Below are positions 3,602 through 30,822 of a stretch of 64,000 bases of DNA, one piece after another. The notes beneath the pieces are model-generated. The model was not told where the DNA came from. It made no database searches and saw only the letters and a list, made by a program, of their open reading frames with translations. A program made the translations under genes and the position numbers. This DNA is from Candidatus Latescibacterota bacterium (GTDB lineage: Bacteria > Latescibacterota > UBA2968 > GCA-2709665). The first letter of the stretch is position 1; the number at the start of each line of letters is the position of its first letter. The stretch is from NCBI GenBank assembly GCA_965226795.1, contig CBDDDZ010000002.1, positions 32,001-96,000 of the forward strand, given 5' to 3'.

Positions 3602-4192
3602 TCACTTCTGTTTGATGAGATCTTCTCGTATCTGATGCGCCTCTTCTTTGAATCTTTGGATGCCGGCAACGAGTGAGGGTAGTCGCTCCTTCCAATGAGT
3701 CAGTTCGCGGCCCTCGTTTGACATTGTCTGGGCAACAATCTCTTTGGCTTGTTTGAGGGTAAGGGTACGGTCCTGCAGTTGAAAGGACTCCACGGCATGG
3801 TTGTATTTATCCTGGATATCGTATGTTCGTTGCTGTGCGTTTTGGAGACTCAAGAGATGATTCCCGCTTTTTCGGTAGTATTGAAGGATTCGGGTTCTCA
3901 ATTCCGAATCGTCCAAGAGAACAATCGAGTCCCGATTGTTGACATAAACATGCCGAGAATCTGCGATCTCGGAAAACAGATTGAACCAGACAATGCGACT
4001 GCGCTCCCATCCTTCAGAGATCTGGTCGTATAGCTCCAGCGAGTTGGTCAAGTCATCGGTAATTCCGACGATCAGAAGGTTTTTAAGGCGGCTAATCTTC
4101 GATTTCTCCAAGCGTGACTGAACCAACCATCCTGTCCCAGCCGCAAGGAATCCTCCAACTATTGCAGAAACAATTGTCTCCATTTTCTTCAA
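3602..4192 (-). CDS. Hypothetical protein with N-terminal membrane anchor and helical/coiled-coil body
   Basis: 196-aa ORF, AT-rich codons, hydrophobic IVSAIVGGFLAAGTGWLV. Confidence 0.65.
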   Translation of the reverse strand: MKKMETIVSAIVGGFLAAGTGWLVQSRLEKSKISRLKNLLIVGITDDLTNSLELYDQISEGWERSRIVWFNLFSEIADSRHVYVNNRDSIVLLDDSELRTRILQYYRKSGNHLLSLQNAQQRTYDIQDKYNHAVESFQLQDRTLTLKQAKEIVAQTMSNEGRELTHWKERLPSLVAGIQRFKEEAHQIREDLIKQK

Positions 4193-4385
4193 GCCTCTAT
4201 GAGATGGTGTCGTTTTTAGTTTTCGTGCGCAATTTATCGATATGTGTTCGTAGAGTATCTACAACGGCGCGATTGGCGTTTGACTGCGGAACTAGCGAAC
4301 CCCTACGGTAATCCGCACCAGAACTGTCGATTCTCAGTCGTTCGGGAAGGTAAGTCACGGAGATATTTGCATTCCCAATATACTA

Positions 4386-4491
4386 AAAAATGCCCCCTAA
4401 GAGGGCATCGTCTCCAGTCAAAAGCAGTCTCCTGCCAATCCATCAATGCACCCGGTGGGCTCGGCATCATTGAATCATCCAGACACGGGAC
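4386..4491 (-). repeat. 106-nt dispersed element, copy A, ending in an intrinsic terminator
   Basis: Aligns without gaps to 6057-6162 (75/106 identical by hand count). Ends ATGCCCTCTTAGGGGGCAT-TTTTT on the minus strand. Confidence 0.75.
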
Positions 4492-4544
4492 CCCGCAGCG
4501 GTACCGGGGGTGTTACAGGAAAGTGCCAAAGTCGACCCTGTATC

Positions 4545-4772
4545 TCAACCGCTGCTCTTGCCAGCGTCCGCCGGTCCTTTGTCCGCGTTCATAAATGACC
4601 GAAGCGCATCATTTACGGCTTCCTCGGTTGGAAATGCCTTCGCGACGTCAGGTTGTAGCAAAACCAGGTTGGTCCCTGATCGGAAAGATTCCAGATACTT
4701 TCCGCGGACGCCGGGAGCGAGATCTTCACGGCAATATTCAGGACGAAGCTCTTCCGGATTAGCCTTCTTCAT
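4545..4772 (-). CDS. BrnA-like type II antitoxin (no adjacent toxin)
   Basis: ELRPEY..GVRGKY..GTNLVLLQPDVAKAFPTEEAVNDALR pattern, typical of small antitoxins that pair with BrnT-type toxins. Confidence 0.65.
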   Translation of the reverse strand: MKKANPEELRPEYCREDLAPGVRGKYLESFRSGTNLVLLQPDVAKAFPTEEAVNDALRSFMNADKGPADAGKSSG

Positions 4773-4869
4773 AGATGCTCCGCACCGCCCAACACGATAA
4801 ATAAGACTCTGATGGGAATTTGACTCACTCTATACTGGCACGTAGGGAATAACCCCTGTCAGTTAGTCT

Positions 4870-5466
4870 TTAATTTGGGTTTCTCCACGTTCTGATCTGT
4901 GATCGGATCCTTTCCAGGCCTGACTTCATACGTTCTAATTGGATATTATCAAGATGTACTTTAGGTCTCATCATGAGAAATTCAGTCGCATCATACGCTA
5001 CCGTGAGAACTCGAGACAAACTTGCACGTTCGATTGACCAGAAGTCGATATTGCAATGCACAAAGTTGTTTCTAAGTTCGTCGTGTAGGTAGTAGAGGTC
5101 ATCTTTGACCTGCTCGGAAAACACAGCAGATCCTTCGCATCCAAGTGTATGCTTCCGGACCCTCCTAAACAGTTCTTTAAAGTCAGCAAGACGTTCCTGC
5201 GTATTATATTCTGTGTTCGGATTCTGCAATGATTCCTTATGCCACTTCAGGAACTCCTTCTGCGACTTCTTATCGAGTGCGCCAATGTTTGCACTTCCGC
5301 TTAATGCGCACACCATAGCGCCTTGCAGCATGTCATGAGTCGCGATGATAAGCCATTTGACATACAGGTGCTGCTCCTCAATCCTCAGCGCCAACTCGGC
5401 ACAGAGGTCGATCGCGCAGAGGACGTTTTCAGTCTTTTCAAACCGAAACCATTCGGGCAAACCCAC
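4870..5466 (-). CDS. Hypothetical helical protein with HEPN-type R-x4-H motif
   Basis: LHDELRNNFVHC near the C-terminus; predicted all-helical; 198 aa. Confidence 0.55.
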   Translation of the reverse strand: MGLPEWFRFEKTENVLCAIDLCAELALRIEEQHLYVKWLIIATHDMLQGAMVCALSGSANIGALDKKSQKEFLKWHKESLQNPNTEYNTQERLADFKELFRRVRKHTLGCEGSAVFSEQVKDDLYYLHDELRNNFVHCNIDFWSIERASLSRVLTVAYDATEFLMMRPKVHLDNIQLERMKSGLERIRSQIRTWRNPN

Positions 5467-5604
5467 CCCTTACTCCTTGGTCTATTTGACTTACGCGCAC
5501 TTACACCAGGTACGGATCGCCAGTCTTTCATTACATTAAAGGCATCCGGACGACCGAGCCCCGAAGGGTAAACGGCAACTTCTGCAGTTTTCGCATCGAT
5601 GTTT

Positions 5605-5859
5605 CTATTTATTCCGACTGGTGTTTTGACGATCCGCGATACAGGCCGTAATTCCACTAATGATCCCGTCCGCGTAGCCTTTTGAATAGTGCTCGTTGTC
5701 CCACTCGCCGGCTATCAGTGTGCCCCGGATTTCACAAGCAGTATTTTATCCAGCCGCATAACCGTCACTATACCCTGGATCGTACCGGGAGTCATCGTCG
5801 TGGGATAGTATCCTAATTAACGATCCGATCGCAATCAAGGCACAAACCACCGTCAACAT
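5605..5859 (-). pseudogene. Small exported-protein-like ORF with an internal stop
   Basis: Manual translation MLTVVCALIAIGSLIRILSHDDDSRYDPGYSDGYAAG*NTACEIRGTLIAGEWDNEHYSKGYADGIISGITACIADRQNTSRNK. TAA at 5746-5748; two Y-x-x-G-Y-x-D-G repeats. Confidence 0.5.
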
Positions 5860-6056
5860 CTTTGCCTAAATAGAAGAGATCTACCTTGTCTCCCGCATTA
5901 AGATTCTCCTCTGGAACTAGGCCAGAGCTGCTGGCAGTTTCTGTATTTCACAAAACCGGCGTATTACCAAACAGTGAGGACAATATGCAGTTGAATAGAG
6001 GGTCGATATTCGTTAGGCAATAACGCACTTTGGAAGGTGGTATTCCGAACAAATTT

Positions 6057-6162
6057 AAAAATGCCCCCTTAGGGGGCATCTTCTCTGATCAATACCTGTC
6101 TGCCTTTTATTCGTCAATTCATCCGGCGGGCTCCGATAGATTGAGTTATCCTGATCCGTGAC
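6057..6162 (-). repeat. 106-nt dispersed element, copy B, ending in an intrinsic terminator
   Basis: Gapless match to 4386-4491; perfect hairpin ATGCCCCCT-A-AGGGGGCAT followed by TTTT. Confidence 0.75.
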
Positions 6163-6396: not shown

Positions 6397-6695
6397 TTTC
6401 TGCTCCTATTTAAAGCGATGTACCCGGTGAGATACACTCTACGTAATCATTCCCCTTTCGGTTGCCGAATCTCAAGCACGGCCGGTGTGGGTGTAACCAG
6501 AACTTTTGCCCAGAGCCCGCGCCCTAGGTCTGCCGAATGGTGTCGAAGGGTTGCCGAAGTCGCGGGCGCCAATGGCCCCCCGCGGCGTAGTTCGGTTTGT
6601 TATCAGAAGGCGCAGGCCCGATGTGGTACAGACGCCTGGGATTGAAGGGTAGATTCTGGTTCTCTTAATGAAGAAAACGCTGCGCATCAAATTCC

Positions 6696-9600
6696 CTACG
6701 TGATAAGCGCGACGGCTTTTTCTTTCAGCGCCGGAAGCAACTCGTCCGCTGCTCGTTCGAGCGCGGCCAGTGCCTTATCCACGTCTTCAAGGTCCCCGTC
6801 CCGCGCCATGGTTTCCAGCCGCAATGCCGCCTCCATGGCCGGTTCCGCATGGAAGACAGCCGCCGAACCCTTCAGTGTATGGGCCGCGCGCCGCAGCAGG
6901 GTCCCATCGCCGTGTCTGATCGCCCGTTTCATTTCTTCAATGTGCTTCCCGTACTCCGTAACAAACAGGCCGGCCAGTTCACCCAGAAGCGCCTCGTTGC
7001 CGCCAACCTGGTCCAGTGCCCCCTGCCAATCCAGTGCGTCGCTACCGACACCGGGCTCCGCCCGCGATTCACCGTCCGATGAGCCGTTAGTCTCCACAAC
7101 ATCGTAGAGATGTCCCGCCCGGATCGGCTTGGGAAGGTAATCGTCCATCCCCTGTTCCAGACACCGCTCTCTGTCTCCCTGCATCACGTGGGCCGTCATT
7201 GCCGCAATTCGAATATGCTCCCCCGACGACCTTTCCCGTTCCCTGATAATCCGTGTTGCCTCCAACCCATCCATCTCCGGCATCTGTATATCCATCAGGA
7301 TCAGATCGAATGTGTCGTTCTCCAGCGCCGTGAGTACTTCCTTGCCGTTGGTGACGGCGGTAACCTGGTGGCCGCGCGGCTCGAGCAGGTCCACGATCAC
7401 TTTCCGGTTGACCATGCCGTCCTCTGCCAACAGGACGCGGCGCCTGTCGGCGGGCGGCAACGGTTCCGCAATCTTCGCAATATCTACGGGCTCGACAACG
7501 CTCACCTCCAGGGCCGCCAGCGTGGCATCGAGCAGGTCGGACTGCTTGACCGGCTTGGTCAGACATCGCGCAAGCCCCAACGCGTCACATCGCACCGCGT
7601 CGTTTGTTCTTCCCGCGGACGAAAGTATCAGAATCGGTACCTCTTTCACATCCGGATCCCGGCGGATACGCTCGGCCAGCGCGAACCCGTCCATATCGGG
7701 CATCATTGCGTCCAGAAAGAAAAGGTGGAACGGCGAATCCGCATCGCCAGCCTCCCGGAGTGTCTCGAGCGCGGCCGGCCCCGAATCCGCCACGTCAATT
7801 TTCATACCCCAGGTTCCCAGCATCTCCTCGAAGATAAACCGGTTTGTACGGTTGTTATCCACCACCAGCGCCCGGAGACCCACCAGGGTCTGGAGATCGG
7901 CCGCCGACCGCTTCGCCGGCTGGGGTTGGGCCTCGAAGAGCGCTGTGAAATAAAACGTGCTCCCTTTGTCAGGCGCGCTCTCCACCCACATGCGTCCACC
8001 CATCATCGTGGCCAGTTGGGATGAAATCGCCAGGCCCAGCCCCGTTCCTCCAAACCGCCGGGAAGTAGAAGAGTCTACCTGGCTGAAAGAGTCGAAAATG
8101 ATCGGCCGATCTTCGGGCGCGATCCCGATGCCGGTATCCCGAACAAAGAACCTCAGACAGAGCTTCTCTTCCTCCCGTGCGTCCACCTTTACGTCAACCA
8201 GCACGTCGCCTTTCTCCGTGAACTTTATGGCGTTGTCCACCAGGTTAATCACGATCTGCCGCAAACGGCCCGGGTCCCCCACCAGCCTGTCCGGAACCTC
8301 CGGTGCAATATGGCACGCCAGCTCCAGCCGGTTCTGTGTGGCTTTGACCGCAAGGGTCTGAACGGTGTCCCCCAGCGTATCGCGGAGGTCGAAGCCGATC
8401 GCTTCCAGTTCCAGCCGGTCCACCTCGAGTTTGGAGAAATCGAGAATATCGTTCAGAAGTGCCAGTAAGGCCTCCGAAGACTGCCTGCTCAACTTGAGAT
8501 ACTCGCGTTGTTGAGGCGTCAACTCCGTGTTGCCCAGAAGCTCCGTCATGCCCATGATGCCATTCATCGGCGTACGGATCTCGTGGCTCATATTGGCCAG
8601 AAACTCGCTTTTTGCGCGATTCGCCTTTTCGGCGGCGTCTTTCGCTTTCTGCAACTCCGCCCCCGAACGCTCCAGTGCAACCGTACTCTTCTTCAGCGCT
8701 TCGTTCGCTTCACGCTCGGCAGCCGCGGTTTTCTCGAGTTGCCGGTTCTTTTCCTGCAGCTGTATCTCGGTGCGCTTGCGTAGCGTGATATCCCGCACCG
8801 TACCGATCATATGTACATACTGCTCCGCGCTGTCACCGAAAACGCGGCCTTTATTTCCCAGCCACCGAACCGTCCCTTCCGGCCATACAACCCGGTGCTC
8901 GACCTCGAAATCCACCCCTTCCCTGATCGTGCGCCGCACCGCACTGCGAACCATCGCCCGGTCTTCGGGGTGCACGAGTTCATAGAACGCCTCGCGCGTA
9001 CCTTCGAACACTTCCGGTTTAAGGCCGAACAACGGCGCCACCAGATCCGACCAGACCAGTTCTCCGGTCAGCAGGTTGGAATCCCAACTCCCCATGTGGG
9101 CGGCTTCCATTGCCAGCTTGAGCCGGGCTTCGCTCTCACGTAATGCCTGTTCTGAGCGCTTCCGTTCGGAGTCCAGATACGCGAGCGACCGTGCGTACCA
9201 CCAGATCAGAATGTTCAGCGCTACGATCACCCCCAGGGAGAACAGCGACATTCCGGATTCGAAACCCAAAATCACTTCGCCGTAAGGCCAGAGCCAGCCC
9301 AGCGCCAGTGGAATCAGGAAAGCCTGAGGCAGCAACCGGCGCGCCATCGAACCGCCAGCGGTCGAGCTGACGATGGTTGTCGTTGGTTCCAGGTCCGGAC
9401 GGGATAAAAACAGGCCAACGCACAGCAGGCCGAATGTGAGCGTTGTGACGGCGCTCATCTGAATATCCCATGTCACTTCCCGGGGCGAGAGCGTCAGGTA
9501 AAAATGCCCAATTGCATAACCGATCGATACGATTGAGGCGACAGACAGACACGTCAGCGCCGGCCACGCGCTTCCTCTGATTTTAAATTGCCAGAGAAAC

Positions 9601-9968
9601 AAGGCCAGGCCGATCAGCGCAAAATTACACGCCTCATCGCGCAACATATGCCCCGCGCCTGCCTCGAAACCGATAAATACGGGGCCCGCGCCAACCAGTT
9701 CCAGAAACGCGAAGACCACCACCACCGCGCTGATTGCCTTCCCCAGGAACTGCCGCCGCGCGGATGATATTCCGTTACGCAGCAGCCACAGCGCGACGCC
9801 GGCCAGTACGAACATCCCAGCCGTCAGCAGAGACATCCATTCAGCGACAGGGGCGTTGACCAGCCATCCGAACAGAACCAACAGGGATAACAGAACAACC
9901 GCCAGATTCGCCGTTTGCGCGGCTATCGCGGCCAGACGCACCAGACGAGGGTCGGCATAATCGTCCAT
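6696..9968 (-). CDS. Membrane-bound hybrid sensor histidine kinase (TM region-PAS-HisKA-HATPase-REC-REC-HPt)
   Basis: H-box FLANMSHEIRTPMNG, NLVDNAIKFT, DTGIGI, GGTGLGL, receiver motifs FFLDAMMP and ILMDIQMP, HPt AAHTLKGSA, PAS VHPEDR. Confidence 0.95.
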   Translation of the reverse strand: MDDYADPRLVRLAAIAAQTANLAVVLLSLLVLFGWLVNAPVAEWMSLLTAGMFVLAGVALWLLRNGISSARRQFLGKAISAVVVVFAFLELVGAGPVFIGFEAGAGHMLRDEACNFALIGLALFLWQFKIRGSAWPALTCLSVASIVSIGYAIGHFYLTLSPREVTWDIQMSAVTTLTFGLLCVGLFLSRPDLEPTTTIVSSTAGGSMARRLLPQAFLIPLALGWLWPYGEVILGFESGMSLFSLGVIVALNILIWWYARSLAYLDSERKRSEQALRESEARLKLAMEAAHMGSWDSNLLTGELVWSDLVAPLFGLKPEVFEGTREAFYELVHPEDRAMVRSAVRRTIREGVDFEVEHRVVWPEGTVRWLGNKGRVFGDSAEQYVHMIGTVRDITLRKRTEIQLQEKNRQLEKTAAAEREANEALKKSTVALERSGAELQKAKDAAEKANRAKSEFLANMSHEIRTPMNGIMGMTELLGNTELTPQQREYLKLSRQSSEALLALLNDILDFSKLEVDRLELEAIGFDLRDTLGDTVQTLAVKATQNRLELACHIAPEVPDRLVGDPGRLRQIVINLVDNAIKFTEKGDVLVDVKVDAREEEKLCLRFFVRDTGIGIAPEDRPIIFDSFSQVDSSTSRRFGGTGLGLAISSQLATMMGGRMWVESAPDKGSTFYFTALFEAQPQPAKRSAADLQTLVGLRALVVDNNRTNRFIFEEMLGTWGMKIDVADSGPAALETLREAGDADSPFHLFFLDAMMPDMDGFALAERIRRDPDVKEVPILILSSAGRTNDAVRCDALGLARCLTKPVKQSDLLDATLAALEVSVVEPVDIAKIAEPLPPADRRRVLLAEDGMVNRKVIVDLLEPRGHQVTAVTNGKEVLTALENDTFDLILMDIQMPEMDGLEATRIIRERERSSGEHIRIAAMTAHVMQGDRERCLEQGMDDYLPKPIRAGHLYDVVETNGSSDGESRAEPGVGSDALDWQGALDQVGGNEALLGELAGLFVTEYGKHIEEMKRAIRHGDGTLLRRAAHTLKGSAAVFHAEPAMEAALRLETMARDGDLEDVDKALAALERAADELLPALKEKAVALIT

Positions 9969-9979
9969 TTCAGACCTTC

Positions 9980-11644
9980 CTACGGGAAGATACCCCTCAG
10001 GAGTTTCGCCTGAGTCACGCGGTGGATTCCTTCAATCAGCGCTGCAGTTCGTATATCCAGCCCATCGCGTTCGGACCGCTGCATCGTCCGTCGGAACGCG
10101 TGGAGCATTATCTGTCTGAGTCGTTCGTTGATCTCCTCGAGCGTCCACATATAATTCTGCGTATCCTGCACCCACTCGAAATAGGAAACCGTAACGCCCC
10201 CGGCGTTGCCGAGCACGTCCGGCAGAATGAACACGCCCTTTTCCATCAGGATCTCATCCGCTTCCAGAGACGTGGGCCCGTTGGCGCCCTCGGCCAGAAT
10301 TCTGCACCGGATCCGTTCGGCATTGTCCGCGGTGATCTGATTCTGCATGGCTGCGGGGACAAGGACATCGCACGGTATCTCGAGCAGTTCCTGATTGCTC
10401 ACGGCATCTCCGCCGGCGTAACCTTCCAGAAACCGGTTTTCTTCCACGTGTTGGAGCAGCGAATCCACCGACAGGCCGTCGGGATTGTAAATTCCGGTTG
10501 TGACATCGCTCACGCCAAGCAGCCTGACCCCACAGGCCTCCAGAAACCGTGCCGCATTGCTCCCGACGTTTCCAAAACCCTGTACCACAGCCGTCGCATG
10601 TCGCAAGTCCAACCGGATATGGTTGGCCGCCTCCTCCACCATGTATACAAGCCCTCGCCCCGTGGCCTCGCGACGACCCTCGGAGCCGCCCAGCACCACC
10701 GGCTTGCCGGTCACGACCGCCGGCACGGTATGTCCCATCTGGTGGCTGTACGTGTCCATCATCCAGGCCATCACATGCTCGTCAGTGCCCATGTCCGGTG
10801 CCGGGATATCCTTTTGCGGCCCGATAACGTCGATAATCTCCGACGTATACCTGCGAGTCAGGCGCTGCAGTTCGTGCCGCGAAAGTACGGTCGGGTCAAT
10901 TCGCACGCCGCCTTTTGCGCCGCCGAACGGCAAATTCATCAATGCACACTTCCACGTCATCCACATTGCCAGGGCGGATACCTCGCCCAGATTCACATCC
11001 TGATGATAGCGCACGCCGCCCTTCGTGGGGCCCATCGTCAACACATGCTGAATCCGGTATCCGGCGACCGTCTCCACATATTCGTGTTCATCCCGCCGGA
11101 ACGGAAAGGTCACCACATGGGTACGCTGTGGGAACAACAGCCGCTGGCGGATGTTGTCATCCAGTTCCATCAACTGCGCCGCCTTCAAAAACTGGCGCTG
11201 CGCCAGCCGGAACATCGGCGACTCCCATTCGGCGTGTAGTGCCCGGCTGCGTTCTACGGCGTATCGGATCGACCTCACCAGGAGAGGGCCGTTCAATTTG
11301 GATTTCACAAGATAATCCTGCGCCCCCGCCTCAACCGCCCGCGCCGCCAGTTTGATATCCTTCAGGCTGGACAGAATGACCACAGGCAAATCCGGATATG
11401 CCGCGCGTACACGGAAATACGTGTCCAGGTCCTCGCTGTCGGGCAGCACCAGGTCCAGCAGCAGCACTTCGTATCCGTCCGCAGCAAGCCGGTTCAGCCC
11501 TTCCGCGAGCGTATCCGCCGCATCCACCTCGAATACCGGGCCCGCGGATTCAGCGAGCAATTCTCGAATCAGCCGCGTGTGCAGCGGATTGTCTTCAATC
11601 AACAACGATTTCAGGTTTGTCGCTGGCATGGCTCCATGTTCCAT
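9980..11644 (-). CDS. Response-regulator receiver domain fused to a Glu/Leu/Phe/Val (glutamate) dehydrogenase
   Basis: REC: LLIEDNP, LLLDLVLPD, VILSS, DYLVK. GDH: KGGVRY, MTWKCA, GGAKGG, DIPAPDMGT, VTGKP, GFGNVG, EGANGP, NAGGVTVSYFEW. Start may be 11629. Confidence 0.93.
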   Translation of the reverse strand: MEHGAMPATNLKSLLIEDNPLHTRLIRELLAESAGPVFEVDAADTLAEGLNRLAADGYEVLLLDLVLPDSEDLDTYFRVRAAYPDLPVVILSSLKDIKLAARAVEAGAQDYLVKSKLNGPLLVRSIRYAVERSRALHAEWESPMFRLAQRQFLKAAQLMELDDNIRQRLLFPQRTHVVTFPFRRDEHEYVETVAGYRIQHVLTMGPTKGGVRYHQDVNLGEVSALAMWMTWKCALMNLPFGGAKGGVRIDPTVLSRHELQRLTRRYTSEIIDVIGPQKDIPAPDMGTDEHVMAWMMDTYSHQMGHTVPAVVTGKPVVLGGSEGRREATGRGLVYMVEEAANHIRLDLRHATAVVQGFGNVGSNAARFLEACGVRLLGVSDVTTGIYNPDGLSVDSLLQHVEENRFLEGYAGGDAVSNQELLEIPCDVLVPAAMQNQITADNAERIRCRILAEGANGPTSLEADEILMEKGVFILPDVLGNAGGVTVSYFEWVQDTQNYMWTLEEINERLRQIMLHAFRRTMQRSERDGLDIRTAALIEGIHRVTQAKLLRGIFP

Positions 11645-27516: not shown

Positions 27517-29082
27517 TTAAATGCGTTCCAGAATCTCCCGAAAACCGTTCACCGCATTCCAGAATCCGGCGCGGCCGGACAACGGCCACAGGCAGACGGT
27601 CCCGTCGAAACTTCGACACCTGAGATTGGAGAGAATCTCGACCAGTTCCGCGTTTCCCCCGCCGGGAACTGCGGGTTCTCCGTTGGCGCGCACGACATCC
27701 CGGAAGTCGACGTGCCTTACGAACCTCCGCACCGGACCCTTGTACAATCCCGAATAGAACGGTCCCGCTCCGGAAAGTGCGACTGCCGCCGGATCGTATG
27801 CCATTCCGATCCGCCCGGATCCGACTTCCTTCAACTGTACGGCGATTTCCGCAGGGCCGATCGTGGCAGGGCTGCCCAGAAGCACTCTGACGCCATGTAC
27901 ATCGGCTGCCAGTGAGAGCCGCTGAAGCGAATCATTCAGGTCCGCCGGCTCGAGATCGTCCGGGAGCCGAAGATGCAGATAATCCGCACTAACGCAGGCA
28001 GTCATCTCACAATCCTCTGCCAGCGTCTCCGGCGACGCGAACGGCGCGCGCAATACAACCGCCCTCACGCCCCTTGCTTCGAGCCGTTCACAAAGATCTT
28101 TGGTACCACCCAGGTGTTTCGTATGCAGTTCTACGAGTGAAATTCCCGCCTCCGCGACCAGATCCAATGCTCGTTCGGTATCGACATCGACCGCCCACAG
28201 CGGCATACTCACCCTGAATTTTTCGTCTTCCAATATGGACGCCAGGGAGTCGGTACGTATCAGCCGATCCTCGCCCCCAACCGCCGGACGGCCGCCGGAC
28301 TGTTTCCGGATCTTCTCTCTGAATCCCACGCAATCGGCGCAGTTCGGATTCTCATCCAGCGCAAACCCGGGATCGCGCGACATTTCGCGCCGCATGATGG
28401 CCGCGGCTCCTGGGGCGTCGATCAGGCGGCAGACAGCCGGTCCGACTGTACCCGTCACCATCGCGCCCTCGGCTGTGAACATCCGATCGAATTTCAACAC
28501 GCCGCCGCGGTGACCGCCGGGACAACGGCGTATCGACAACGTACGGATCTCGCCGCCCGCATCGATATACTTCATTTCCAATTCACGCAGGTAGGGCAGG
28601 TCCAGCTCCGCCTCTACCGTATGCAGCAGCGTCATCGTGTCCAGGTCGCATCCCAGGTGCAACACCTTTCCGCCAAGAGGAATCAGGCGGCCATACGGCG
28701 TTTCCGGTCCATCGGGCGCTGCGCTCTTCTCATGATCGGACAGGATCTCCTCCGCCCTCGCTCCGTACCCCGCTACCGGGTGATAGGGATGCCGGCTTCG
28801 CAGCACGCCCGGCCGCAACCGAAACGTCTCGCTGATGACGCCCATGTCGGAAGGGATGGCGTCCGGATCGAACGCCAGTCCGTCCCGCGCCGGATGCGTG
28901 GGCATCAACAACGTTCCATGCTGCCCCAGTACCTCCACCAAAGCGTCGATCACCGCGTTCGCGCCGCCGGATACGGGTCCCAGGCTGCTCAGAGACGAAT
29001 GCACCATCACAATCGTGCCCGGCTGCAACCCCAGGGACCTTGCGCCATCAGCTATATGCGTTTGGGATAGCATCGCGGCCAT
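27517..29082 (-). CDS. AAC(3)-family N-acetyltransferase fused to a xylose-isomerase/AP-endonuclease-2-like TIM barrel
   Basis: MVHSSLSSLG, GTLLMPT, MGVISETFR, RSRHP, TLLHTVE, followed by YDPAA..HVDFRD..PGGGNAELVEIL..FDG. Confidence 0.78.
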   Translation of the reverse strand: MAAMLSQTHIADGARSLGLQPGTIVMVHSSLSSLGPVSGGANAVIDALVEVLGQHGTLLMPTHPARDGLAFDPDAIPSDMGVISETFRLRPGVLRSRHPYHPVAGYGARAEEILSDHEKSAAPDGPETPYGRLIPLGGKVLHLGCDLDTMTLLHTVEAELDLPYLRELEMKYIDAGGEIRTLSIRRCPGGHRGGVLKFDRMFTAEGAMVTGTVGPAVCRLIDAPGAAAIMRREMSRDPGFALDENPNCADCVGFREKIRKQSGGRPAVGGEDRLIRTDSLASILEDEKFRVSMPLWAVDVDTERALDLVAEAGISLVELHTKHLGGTKDLCERLEARGVRAVVLRAPFASPETLAEDCEMTACVSADYLHLRLPDDLEPADLNDSLQRLSLAADVHGVRVLLGSPATIGPAEIAVQLKEVGSGRIGMAYDPAAVALSGAGPFYSGLYKGPVRRFVRHVDFRDVVRANGEPAVPGGGNAELVEILSNLRCRSFDGTVCLWPLSGRAGFWNAVNGFREILERI

Positions 29083-29224
29083 CTTTCCTCTTCGCTACAG
29101 CGGTCTGCGCTCAAACCGCCAAGGGACTTCAGCCGTATGTCACGCGCGACGGACGGCCCCGGCTGTACACCGGCAAGGAATCCCGCGAAATCCCGACTCT
29201 CGATCGTCCCCGCCGGTCTCCCGC

Positions 29225-29920
29225 TTACCGCCATTCGATCAACGCCTTCGCGTACGCGCGCCCCACCAGTCGATAGCCGTCCCGGAGATACGGCATATGA
29301 TGTCCTGACAGAATACAATCCACGTGCCGTTCGGAAAGTCGCTTCAGGGTCCGTATGTACGTCGGTTTGTCGAATTCCTCTCCCCCCTGCCAGCCCAACT
29401 CCGGCTGATAGCTGGTATTTCCGCAGAACAGCACGTCGCCGGCCAGCCAGATCGTCTTTCCCACGTGTTGGAACTGAAAGATGACACATCCGTTCGTGTG
29501 GCCCGGCGCATGGATGACCTCGAACCGAAATCCGCAGGCCTCTATCGTGTCGCCGTCCTCAACCACCCGGTCCACCCTGCAGGCCGGCAACCGGAATCCC
29601 GCGGCGTACGGAATGGTGCGCGCGTCCGATCTCTCAATCCCCTCCGCGTCGCCCGGCCCGGCTATCACGAACGCGCCCCGCTCCCGAATTGCGGCCGCAT
29701 TGCCGATGTGATCGTAATGGCTATGCGACAAGAACAGGAAATCGACTTTCTCCAGCGAGATCCCCCATACGCCCAACTGTGCTTCGGCTCGATCCAGGTC
29801 GGCGGGCACCGACCCGGCGTCGACCACGATCGTGCCCGCATCGCTATGCAACACATAGAAATTCGCGTGTTGCGCGTAAGCAAACCCGTCCGCGAGATAG
29901 ATATCCGGCAGAATCTGCAT
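29225..29920 (-). CDS. Metallo-beta-lactamase-fold hydrolase
   Basis: SHSHYDHIG, PGHTNG, AGD, SGH. Confidence 0.9.
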   Translation of the reverse strand: MQILPDIYLADGFAYAQHANFYVLHSDAGTIVVDAGSVPADLDRAEAQLGVWGISLEKVDFLFLSHSHYDHIGNAAAIRERGAFVIAGPGDAEGIERSDARTIPYAAGFRLPACRVDRVVEDGDTIEACGFRFEVIHAPGHTNGCVIFQFQHVGKTIWLAGDVLFCGNTSYQPELGWQGGEEFDKPTYIRTLKRLSERHVDCILSGHHMPYLRDGYRLVGRAYAKALIEWR

Positions 29921-29946
29921 CCCGGCCTCCGTCGGCTGTCATCCGG

Positions 29947-30822
29947 TTACACGTCCGAGGCGCCCCGGTATCCCGGGGGAATGAGCCCCCTCTGATGATC
30001 CCGGCACACCTCGAGGAAACTGCGGTCCTTCAGCAAGAAGCCGGGATCTTCCACGATACACCGGGTGCCCTCGTCAATCAGTTCCCTGGCGTTCATTATG
30101 GTCACTTTCGCATTGCCAATTTTCCCGTACTGAACAAGCTCCCGATTCTGCATTTCAGGTTCCATCAGAAAATAATCTCGCGGCACGTTCGGCGTATGCA
30201 CCTTCTGGACGTGGAGATGGATCCGGCTCCGTTCGTCCGCCACCTCCAGGCGGGACGGCTCGTCCATCAAGGCGTAAGGCGCATGCCCGTATTCCTCGCA
30301 GGCGTGCATCATCGTGCAACTGTTCCATCCGGTACCCAGGAACATATAGTGCGCATCCAGTTCACCGAGCTTCCCCCAGGCCGTATCCCGTCCGCACGGC
30401 GTGAAGCAGCGAATCGCGCCTTCCGCCAGGTACTCCGCGTGGTTCCCGATCGCACACATCGGGTTGCTGGAGTCCAGGCATCTCACCGCTCCCGGATGCT
30501 GACGGAACACCTCCGTGATCCGCCCCATCCTGGACGGCGAGCGGCGCACGTCGAACGCCGGCTTCCTGCTGGTGCGGGCATACTCGCAGTGCCATCCGTT
30601 GAAATGACACGAATGCACCGCAACCGTACCCCGCGACCCTACCGCCTCGAGGAAGGCTTCGATCACGGTTTCAGCGCCGCCCTCCACGTATCCCATACTG
30701 CTCAGGGAATTGTGAAAAAACACGGTGTCGCCGAGCGCCACCCCCATCTTCCGCAGGCCTTCGATGATGTCAACCTTCCGAACGACCGTTTTCCCTTCCG
30801 GCGAATAGGGTTTACTGGCCAT
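29947..30822 (-). CDS. AAC(3)-family N-acetyltransferase
   Basis: FHNSLSSMGYVEGGA, MGRITEVFR, CTMMHACEE. Confidence 0.85.
   Translation of the reverse strand: MASKPYSPEGKTVVRKVDIIEGLRKMGVALGDTVFFHNSLSSMGYVEGGAETVIEAFLEAVGSRGTVAVHSCHFNGWHCEYARTSRKPAFDVRRSPSRMGRITEVFRQHPGAVRCLDSSNPMCAIGNHAEYLAEGAIRCFTPCGRDTAWGKLGELDAHYMFLGTGWNSCTMMHACEEYGHAPYALMDEPSRLEVADERSRIHLHVQKVHTPNVPRDYFLMEPEMQNRELVQYGKIGNAKVTIMNARELIDEGTRCIVEDPGFLLKDRSFLEVCRDHQRGLIPPGYRGASDV

Follow-up and report, generated by a model that had tools for sequence, protein, structure and literature searches.

Fusions of the receiver (REC) domain to standard metabolic enzymes, such as thioredoxin reductase, pyruvate phosphate dikinase and a glycosyltransferase, form a recognised class (PMC5847659), and the P2CS database enters glutamate dehydrogenase (GDH; EC 1.4.1.3) as "Probable" among the enzymes of two-component proteins (PMC2716373, Table 1), which makes it very likely that the REC-GDH architecture has been catalogued since 2009. 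Full-text searches, in which subscription papers and supplements were little covered, found no experimental study of such a fusion. The response-regulator surveys of Galperin from 2006 and 2010 reportedly include rare enzymatic outputs, possibly with GDH among them. Of the described systems, the GlnH-GlnX-PknG-OdhI/GarA cascade acts at the glutamate/2-oxoglutarate node (PMC9769921), and B. subtilis restrains its degradative GDH, GudB, by GltAB (bioRxiv 10.1101/2021.04.12.439528). Here we analyse a 64,000-nucleotide stretch of a Candidatus Latescibacterota genome (contig CBDDDZ010000002.1, positions 32,001 to 96,000; hereafter the window), which encodes a REC-GDH fusion and, directly downstream, an unorthodox hybrid histidine kinase ending in a histidine phosphotransfer (HPt) domain. 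An initial annotation, made from the letters alone, had implied that this arrangement was new, which the P2CS entry and the class of REC-bearing metabolic enzymes indicate to be an overstatement.

The association of REC-GDH with an HPt relay is real, conserved and well formed, and on balance the fusion probably behaves as a response regulator with an enzymatic output, placed at the end of a relay that starts from an unorthodox kinase. GDH stands at the carbon/nitrogen junction, and cells with glutamine synthetase (GS) and glutamate synthase (GOGAT) must restrain a degradative GDH; if the proposal is true, two-component signalling would gate a central metabolic enzyme directly, within seconds, and not via gene expression.

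Organization of the locus

Both genes lie on the reverse strand of the window, with the following features:

9980..11644 (-): REC-GDH fusion gene, a single open reading frame (ORF) of 554 aa from the first ATG
11300..11605 (-): receiver domain of the fusion, with E12, D13, the phospho-acceptor D59 (11453-11455), S87 and K109
11222..11290 (-): extended REC alpha5 helix, residues 114-136, placed from the AlphaFold2 secondary structure and the N-termini of unfused GDHs
10742..11131 (-): GDH domain I (ELFV_dehydrog_N), with K203, K227, K239 and D279
9992..10690 (-): GDH coenzyme-binding domain, with R319, GFGNVG (351-356), P7 Asp375, P8 Val376 and S482
9969..9979 (-): 11-nt intergenic gap from the fusion stop to the kinase, bridged by contigs in 4/4 runs examined
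6696..9968 (-): unorthodox hybrid histidine kinase, 1090 aa, 11 nt downstream of the fusion
9219..9944 (-): putative unnamed multi-pass membrane domain of the kinase, with six hydrophobic segments and without a Pfam match
8796..9059 (-): kinase PAS_3 domain (Pfam)
7941..8615 (-): kinase HisKA (H462) and HATPase_c (N579, D611, G643)
7524..7868 (-): kinase REC1, with D704, N705, D753, S783 and K805
7095..7436 (-): kinase REC2, with E849, D850, D893, T925 and K947
6738..6980 (-): kinase HPt domain, with H1030

The ORF coordinates and Pfam domains agree with the initial annotation in that one continuous frame joins REC to a complete GDH and an HK-REC-REC-HPt kinase begins 11 nt after its stop; its further statement that no DNA-binding response regulator lies nearby also holds, because REC matches in the window are confined to the one of the fusion and the two of the kinase. 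The second Met of the fusion, at 11629, is probably its true start, giving 549 aa, since 12 of the 14 same-genus ORFs measure 549 aa from their first start codon; residue numbers for the fusion count from this position unless 554 numbering is stated. The intergenic gap and the stop codon hold AGGAAGG, a Shine-Dalgarno-like run 7 nt ahead of the kinase ATG, and judging from their spacing the two genes are presumably co-transcribed. A sigma-70 promoter scan returned no site for the fusion gene; a perfect TTGACA lies upstream at 11716-11711(-), without a good -10.

Contigs from 4 of 24 listed runs, belonging to four studies (X3, X7, X9 and X10), were examined. The REC-GDH junction (about 11230), on whose support by reads the initial annotation had made its proposal depend, is bridged by independent contigs from three of these four (X3, X7 and X10); the X9 contig ends 14 nt past the junction and is excluded from the count. 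X10, labelled "sponge metagenome", matches the locus with 0-1 differences per piece, and X7 and X9 are RNA libraries holding the locus as contigs, which show neither transcription nor a single transcript.

Genome-wide, the source genome (G000, 95.9% complete) yields one ELFV GDH match, which is the fusion, and its profile search gave no Bac_GDH match. Its single Hpt match is that of the adjacent kinase, alongside 21 REC matches and matches to GOGAT and GS. Hence the only GDH detected in this genome bears a receiver, and the only HPt detected lies 11 nt away. Two tandem REC-bearing open frames of 239 aa each (G000:C4:16779-18369) have no kinase detected nearby.

Sequence and structural features of the fusion

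The 554-aa product matches Response_reg at 14-115, ELFV_dehydrog_N at 172-301 and ELFV_dehydrog at 319-551. Its REC scores 60 bits against the curated PF00072 cut-off of 30.2 and shows the beta/alpha pattern at high predicted local distance difference test (pLDDT) values. Residues 142-554 (554 numbering) align full length with small hexameric GDHs (best E 1e-138), the Leu, Phe and Trp dehydrogenases matching with far lower scores, and in the columns of Thermotoga maritima GDH the fusion is identical at the glutamate-binding and catalytic residues and at GxGxxG. Three Lys, an Asp, an Arg and a Ser are the residues that serve glutamate binding and catalysis in GDHs. The REC phosphorylation residues, GDH catalytic lysines and GxGxxG named in the initial annotation are thus all in place, and the protein does not match the pseudo-receiver class, all phosphorylation residues being present. 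By its sequence it can be classed both as a phosphorylatable REC and as a small hexameric GDH. Its scores fall below the NCBIfam cut-offs for GdhB_Halo (496.9 < 620), GdhA_Arch (479.3 < 750) and PRK09414 (268 < 536), and it appears to belong to none of these named GDH equivalogs.

Conservation was counted in 229 sequences (120 proteins and 109 locus ORFs), a redundant set chosen by similarity. The phospho-acceptor D59 is kept in 228/229, K109 in 229/229, Thr/Ser87 in 226/229 and D13 in 225/228 covered; in the GDH part, K203 and K227 are kept in 225/225 covered, K239 in 223/224, and D279 and R319 in 218/218. The REC is the most variable part of the fusion (mean consensus 0.68, against 0.78-0.92 elsewhere), and therefore its near-invariant phosphorylation residues appear to have been selectively kept. 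Its alpha4-beta5-alpha5 face is also conserved among 129 non-redundant RECs (A95 95%, A98 98%, V99 98%, E100 96%, G102 and A103 100%, L117 98%, R119 100%, Y123 92%).

Unfused GDH relatives start at a motif resembling E-W/L-D-T-P-x-F/Y, which corresponds to residue 134 of the fusion, so that the REC alpha5 helix seems to be joined directly to the native GDH N-terminus; the junction reads E134-W135-x-S-P-M-F (E134 at 11228-11230) and has no flexible linker. An AlphaFold2 monomer (mean pLDDT 72.7, predicted template modelling score 0.67) likewise places a helix at 114-136 directly before another at 138-154. Foldseek with this model confirmed the GDH fold only, the root-mean-square deviation of about 10 A reflecting the poor model of domain I. 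The K109-W135 span is 27 residues in all 230 aligned rows; as proof of a rigid helical register this was set aside, control segments being equally invariant, and it is merely compatible with one.

The coenzyme fingerprint has D375 at P7 and V376 at P8, and Ser occurs at P8 in 0/95 fused sequences. A Ser at this position is a key determinant of NADP use according to PMC12364357; the combination seen here, an Asp at P7 and no Ser at P8, points weakly to NAD and thereby to a degradative role.

The partner kinase

Pfam assigns PAS_3, HisKA, HATPase_c, two Response_reg and Hpt to the kinase, preceded by six hydrophobic segments within residues 9-250 in a crude hydropathy scan. The best ESM Atlas clusters for its N-terminal ~270 aa (0.94 and 0.90) are unnamed, MASE3 reaching only 0.83, which suggests that this region belongs to an unnamed membrane sensor family. 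The kinase falls into the unorthodox hybrid class of P2CS, with HisKA, HATPase, REC and HPt and with the His, Asp and His residues intact. It scores below the NCBIfam cut-offs for BarA (482.5 < 890), TorS (465.5 < 676.5) and ArcB (350 < 838), and appears to be a member of none of these equivalogs. In REC1 the second acidic position is Asn (D704-N705), as in 16 of the 55 aligned partner kinases; the ATP-binding motifs and the D/T/K of REC2 are kept in 55/55, and the HPt His in 50/55, the other five ending at REC2 with a free HPt gene beside the fusion.

The sensory inputs of 23 partner kinases are diverse: the unnamed membrane domain occurs alone in 7 and with PAS in 2, CHASE in 6, Cache-HAMP-PAS in 2, PAS only in 2, and GAF-PAS, MHYT-PAS, YfiR-like and REC-REC in 1 each, some of the kinases having no detected membrane sensor. 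A single conserved input signal is thereby ruled out. The membrane signal invoked in the initial annotation is lineage-specific, the input taking at least 8 arrangements. A dedicated clade of partner kinases was likewise sought and not found: they intermingle on the tree with 20 paralogues that do not adjoin a fusion (5 changes; L206, counted among these, may in fact be the cut-off partner of L007), so they are not one exclusive clade and no dedicated kinase lineage can be recognized. Distances among fusions and among kinases correlate (Spearman 0.41; 0/2000 permutations).

Conserved neighbourhood of the fusion

Out of 110 fusion loci, 46 with less than 1.5 kb on a side were set aside, leaving 64 informative ones, which include the window and its close kin; the same rule removed 13 of 68 unfused GDH loci, leaving 55. 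When a kinase or HPt gene is counted as adjacent if it lies on the same strand and no more than 500 nt away, a partner is present at 52/64 fusion loci and at 0/55 unfused GDH loci, the former corresponding to 28/38 clusters at 90% identity and 23/32 at 80%. Among all 69 partnered loci, 48 have an HK-REC-REC-HPt-type kinase as the partner, 14 a free HPt and 1 a REC-HPt protein, and in the other 6 the contig end truncates the partner; 42 of the partners are downstream of the fusion and 27 upstream. Where the kinase is split, the free HPt gene is the one that adjoins the fusion (e.g. L008, L163, L175). Because the inputs vary and the partner kinases intermingle with non-adjacent paralogues, the conserved unit is an HPt next to REC-GDH, and not one kinase lineage or signal.

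Several loci depart from the common plan. At L108:8678-9487 (G017) a REC-HPt protein of 269 aa that lacks a kinase core overlaps the fusion stop, and a second GDH lies about 8.5 kb from this locus; L146, L165 and L183 have an extra REC-containing ORF of ~250 aa 11-14 nt upstream of the fusion. In L164, one of the loci scored as partner-less, the pair is broken into several ORFs (L164:3458-6713), probably by sequencing frameshifts, and pieces of the kinase lie 1 kb from this fragmented copy. Genome-wide loss of the partner in orphan or degenerate fusions was considered and set aside: 5/5 such genomes hold family or related hybrid kinases, as do 5/5 comparison genomes. A scan of 79 neighbouring ORFs from 26 mostly partner-less loci revealed no recurring third gene.

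Phyletic distribution and origin

A homologue search with fusion residues 1-200 gave 1924 matches at E <= 1e-10. The best 120 of these 1924 were inspected: all contain REC and ELFV_dehydrog_N and 119 also ELFV_dehydrog, at 57-89% identity, and the names among them include Gimesia, Pontibacterium, Amphritea, Leisingera, Longimicrobiaceae and Latescibacteria. Genome loci extend the fusion to Gemmatimonadota, Myxococcota, Halomonas, Microbulbifer and Lujinxingia. REC-GDH is therefore a multi-phylum family, and the recurrence of the architecture, with an HPt-bearing neighbour, on which the initial annotation had staked its proposal is found in many genomes. In the ESM Atlas a single cluster of 114 members matches the fusion, 88% of them with Response_reg. 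Among 40 relatives of the source genome, a full-length fusion is present in 14/14 same-genus and 3/7 other same-family genomes, and in 0/19 genomes of the other family. A kinase-GDH or HPt-GDH triple fusion was not seen among the 4 matches of 962-2745 aa from 452 candidates, which is weak evidence; one large protein, P0121 (1035 aa), has GDH Pfam domains only, is 55% identical over part of the query and is possibly a tandem GDH.

In trees of the GDH domain, all fusions and the REC-less L012 and L014 form one branch with support 99 in both trees, compatible with a single origin of the fusion; as sampling was by similarity, independent fusions elsewhere would be missed. The free trees nest L012 and L014 among the fusions, and the approximately unbiased (AU) test does not reject a clade of fusions without them (p 0.64; constrained tree 11 log-likelihood units better). 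Secondary loss of REC is accordingly not claimed, and the two may represent a pre-fusion sister lineage. These REC-less GDHs (L012:7959-9257, L014:7896-9254) are 69-74% identical to the fusion's GDH and, though from two phyla, have in common the short leader IRPFDQPL; that of L014 follows a 2-oxoacid dehydrogenase E1/E2 operon. The closest unfused relatives are found in Myxococcota, Actinomycetota and Nitrospirota. A planctomycetotal branch, L009-L011, has a receiver that is degenerate in part (D13 to G/S, T87 to I) and no adjacent partner, and contains the only fusions in which both the acidic pocket and the Thr/Ser position are damaged; these fusions offer natural controls for enzyme assays.

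Proposed mechanism and alternative explanations

The reading that we favour, and hold to be moderately probable, is a His-Asp phosphorelay of two genes that has a catalytically competent GDH as its terminal response regulator, the activity of the enzyme being gated by the phosphorylated REC. The kinase would autophosphorylate at H462, and the phosphate would pass via an internal REC, most likely at D893 of the canonical REC2, to H1030 of the HPt, which in turn would phosphorylate D59 of REC-GDH. Phosphorylation would change the alpha4-beta5-alpha5 face and, because alpha5 abuts the GDH N-terminal helix without a linker, might shift the open/closed cycle or the hexamer state of the enzyme. In this way a GDH that probably uses NAD and degrades glutamate would be gated in a cell equipped with both GS and GOGAT. 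As to direction, our guess leans slightly towards phosphorylation switching the enzyme on, by analogy with the mechanisms of CheB, PleD and WspR. The overall interpretation of the initial annotation is in this respect partly supported, in that the fusion is real, recurrent and accompanied by an HPt-bearing neighbour; the novelty was overstated and the membrane signal is lineage-specific.

A number of observations weigh against this proposal. An adjacent partner is missing from 12 of the 64 informative loci, and of the 11 of these other than L164, eight keep a fully intact REC; the degenerate L009-L011 count as one lineage or event, and further HK-REC-REC kinases occur in their genomes. Partner kinases are intermingled with non-adjacent paralogues, and six other REC proteins of the source genome, for which a limited profile detected no kinase within 4 kb, could also take phosphate from the HPt. 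On the structural side, modelled domain I is of low confidence (pLDDT < 50 over most of 167-314), the model is a monomer and so does not give the placement of REC within the hexamer, and the constant length of the junction is not peculiar to it, most family segments being as invariant. The coenzyme assignment is tempered by unfused relatives, which are also mostly non-Ser at P8 (Ser in 10/68), and by the many exceptions to the P7/P8 fingerprint (PMC12364357).

Of the alternatives, it is fairly unlikely that REC phosphorylation controls binding partners, localisation, degradation or higher-order assembly, with REC dimers cross-linking hexamers, in place of controlling catalysis directly. The strongly conserved alpha4-beta5-alpha5 face is what a protein-protein surface would be expected to show, and binding partners are known to control GDHs, GltAB acting in this way on GudB (bioRxiv 10.1101/2021.04.12.439528); however, the neighbourhoods examined show no recurrent third gene next to the pair, and the tight helix-to-helix junction is easier to reconcile with intramolecular allostery than with a tethered tag.

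Flow in the reverse sense, with the GDH as a sensor of glutamate, 2-oxoglutarate or NADH, the REC as a ligand-tuned phosphate sink and another response regulator as the real output, is unlikely. It draws on the six REC proteins without a detected nearby kinase, the two internal RECs of the kinase and the precedent of moonlighting GDHs (RocG-GltC, GdhZ-FtsZ). Against it, no DNA-binding regulator recurs with the pair, and the catalytic residues are fully kept, unlike in a dedicated sensor subunit; the fusion also scores 422 bits against two Thermus chains of 424 and 440 aa and 318 against chain 3aoe_E, which we take to be the regulatory GdhA.

It is very unlikely that the receiver serves only as a vestigial or structural cap, much as basic amino-acid decarboxylases have a receiver-derived wing, and that the kinase is just a neighbour inherited along with it. 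Such a cap would sit well with the partner-less fusions (12/64), with the REC being the least conserved part of the protein and with the fusion-kinase distance correlation, as plain co-inheritance would predict it; but the phosphorylation residues stay near-invariant against this variable background, and the adjacency outlasts reversal of gene order, splitting of the kinase and replacement of the sensor domain. An assembly or frameshift artefact joining two genes has a negligible probability and is refuted by the bridging contigs from 3/4 runs of different studies, by the 120/120 listed homologues carrying REC and ELFV_dehydrog_N and by full-length matches without stops in 14/14 same-genus genomes.

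The favoured phosphorelay is unusually testable, as it comprises two genes and an NAD(P)H assay would serve as a continuous read-out of the relay. Cultured hosts occur among the results (Halomonas stenophila L006, Lujinxingia vulgaris L013, Gimesia maris P0054, Leisingera caerulea P0101), and the natural variants with a damaged receiver add to this.

Flanking regions of the window

Downstream of the pair lies one further feature:

6057..6083 (-): terminator-like 12-pair hairpin, ~610 nt past the kinase stop, a consensus match only

Terminator-like sites around this hairpin number 4, against 6.0 in shuffles of the region. In the X3 contig, other sequence stands in place of the 3' flank of the kinase (window 6557-6695), and X9 diverges at the same point, so the stretch after the kinase stop is a variable region among strains. 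Further on, two ORFs of 196 and 198 aa (3602-5466, -) have no Pfam match and lie in a region of lower GC (0.487 in 4001-6000, against about 0.59). Two adjoining aminoglycoside 3-N-acetyltransferase-like (PF02522) genes are found at 27517-30822 (-), the 521-aa product of one having about 290 unannotated C-terminal residues, and a cluster at 35109-62636 (+) encodes TonB-receptor-like, PorV-like, TPR, FG-GAP/ASPIC, heparinase II/III-like and large beta-propeller proteins.

Relationship to known systems

The regulators with REC on a metabolic enzyme, including the GDH entry of P2CS, resemble this system in carrying REC on a housekeeping enzyme under presumed environmental control; the available portions of PMC5847659 and PMC2716373 give no partner kinase, family or mechanism for a fusion with GDH, whereas here an HK-REC-REC-HPt relay accompanies the enzyme in several phyla. 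The GDHs of Thermotoga maritima (1B26), Thermus thermophilus (3AOG/3AOE), Bacillus (RocG/GudB) and Arabidopsis (GDH1) align over their full length with the fusion's GDH, with catalytic motifs intact, and differ in that the REC part is unaligned in all 60 listed PDB sequences. BarA, TorS and ArcB share the HisKA-HATPase-REC-HPt relay with all relay residues; this kinase differs in its two internal RECs, its apparently unnamed membrane sensor and its sub-cut-off scores, and the neighbouring receiver is an enzyme and not a transcription factor. CheB, PleD and WspR likewise place an enzyme output under an N-terminal REC, and the closest PDB matches of the REC part include the REC-GGDEF proteins 3luf, 6zxc and 3bre, but their outputs are signalling enzymes.

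In a more far-reaching and tentative version, which we think somewhat less probable than its negation, the system would be a transcription-free phosphorelay with glutamate flux as its sole output, in which six RECs per hexamer act as a cooperative switch via the N-terminal helix, possibly also driving higher-order assembly, and in which several phyla plug different sensors (the unnamed membrane domain, CHASE, Cache, GAF/PAS, MHYT) into one HPt-to-GDH terminal, making it an independently evolved His-Asp counterpart of the actinobacterial PknG-GarA/OdhI system. GarA also inhibits GDH. PknG-OdhI/GarA and GltAB-GudB are alike in that flux through the glutamate/2-oxoglutarate node is adjusted to signals without recourse to transcription, the former through a Ser/Thr kinase and a separate FHA inhibitor and the latter through a complex with the counter-enzyme, whereas the switch here is a His-Asp receiver built into the enzyme itself.

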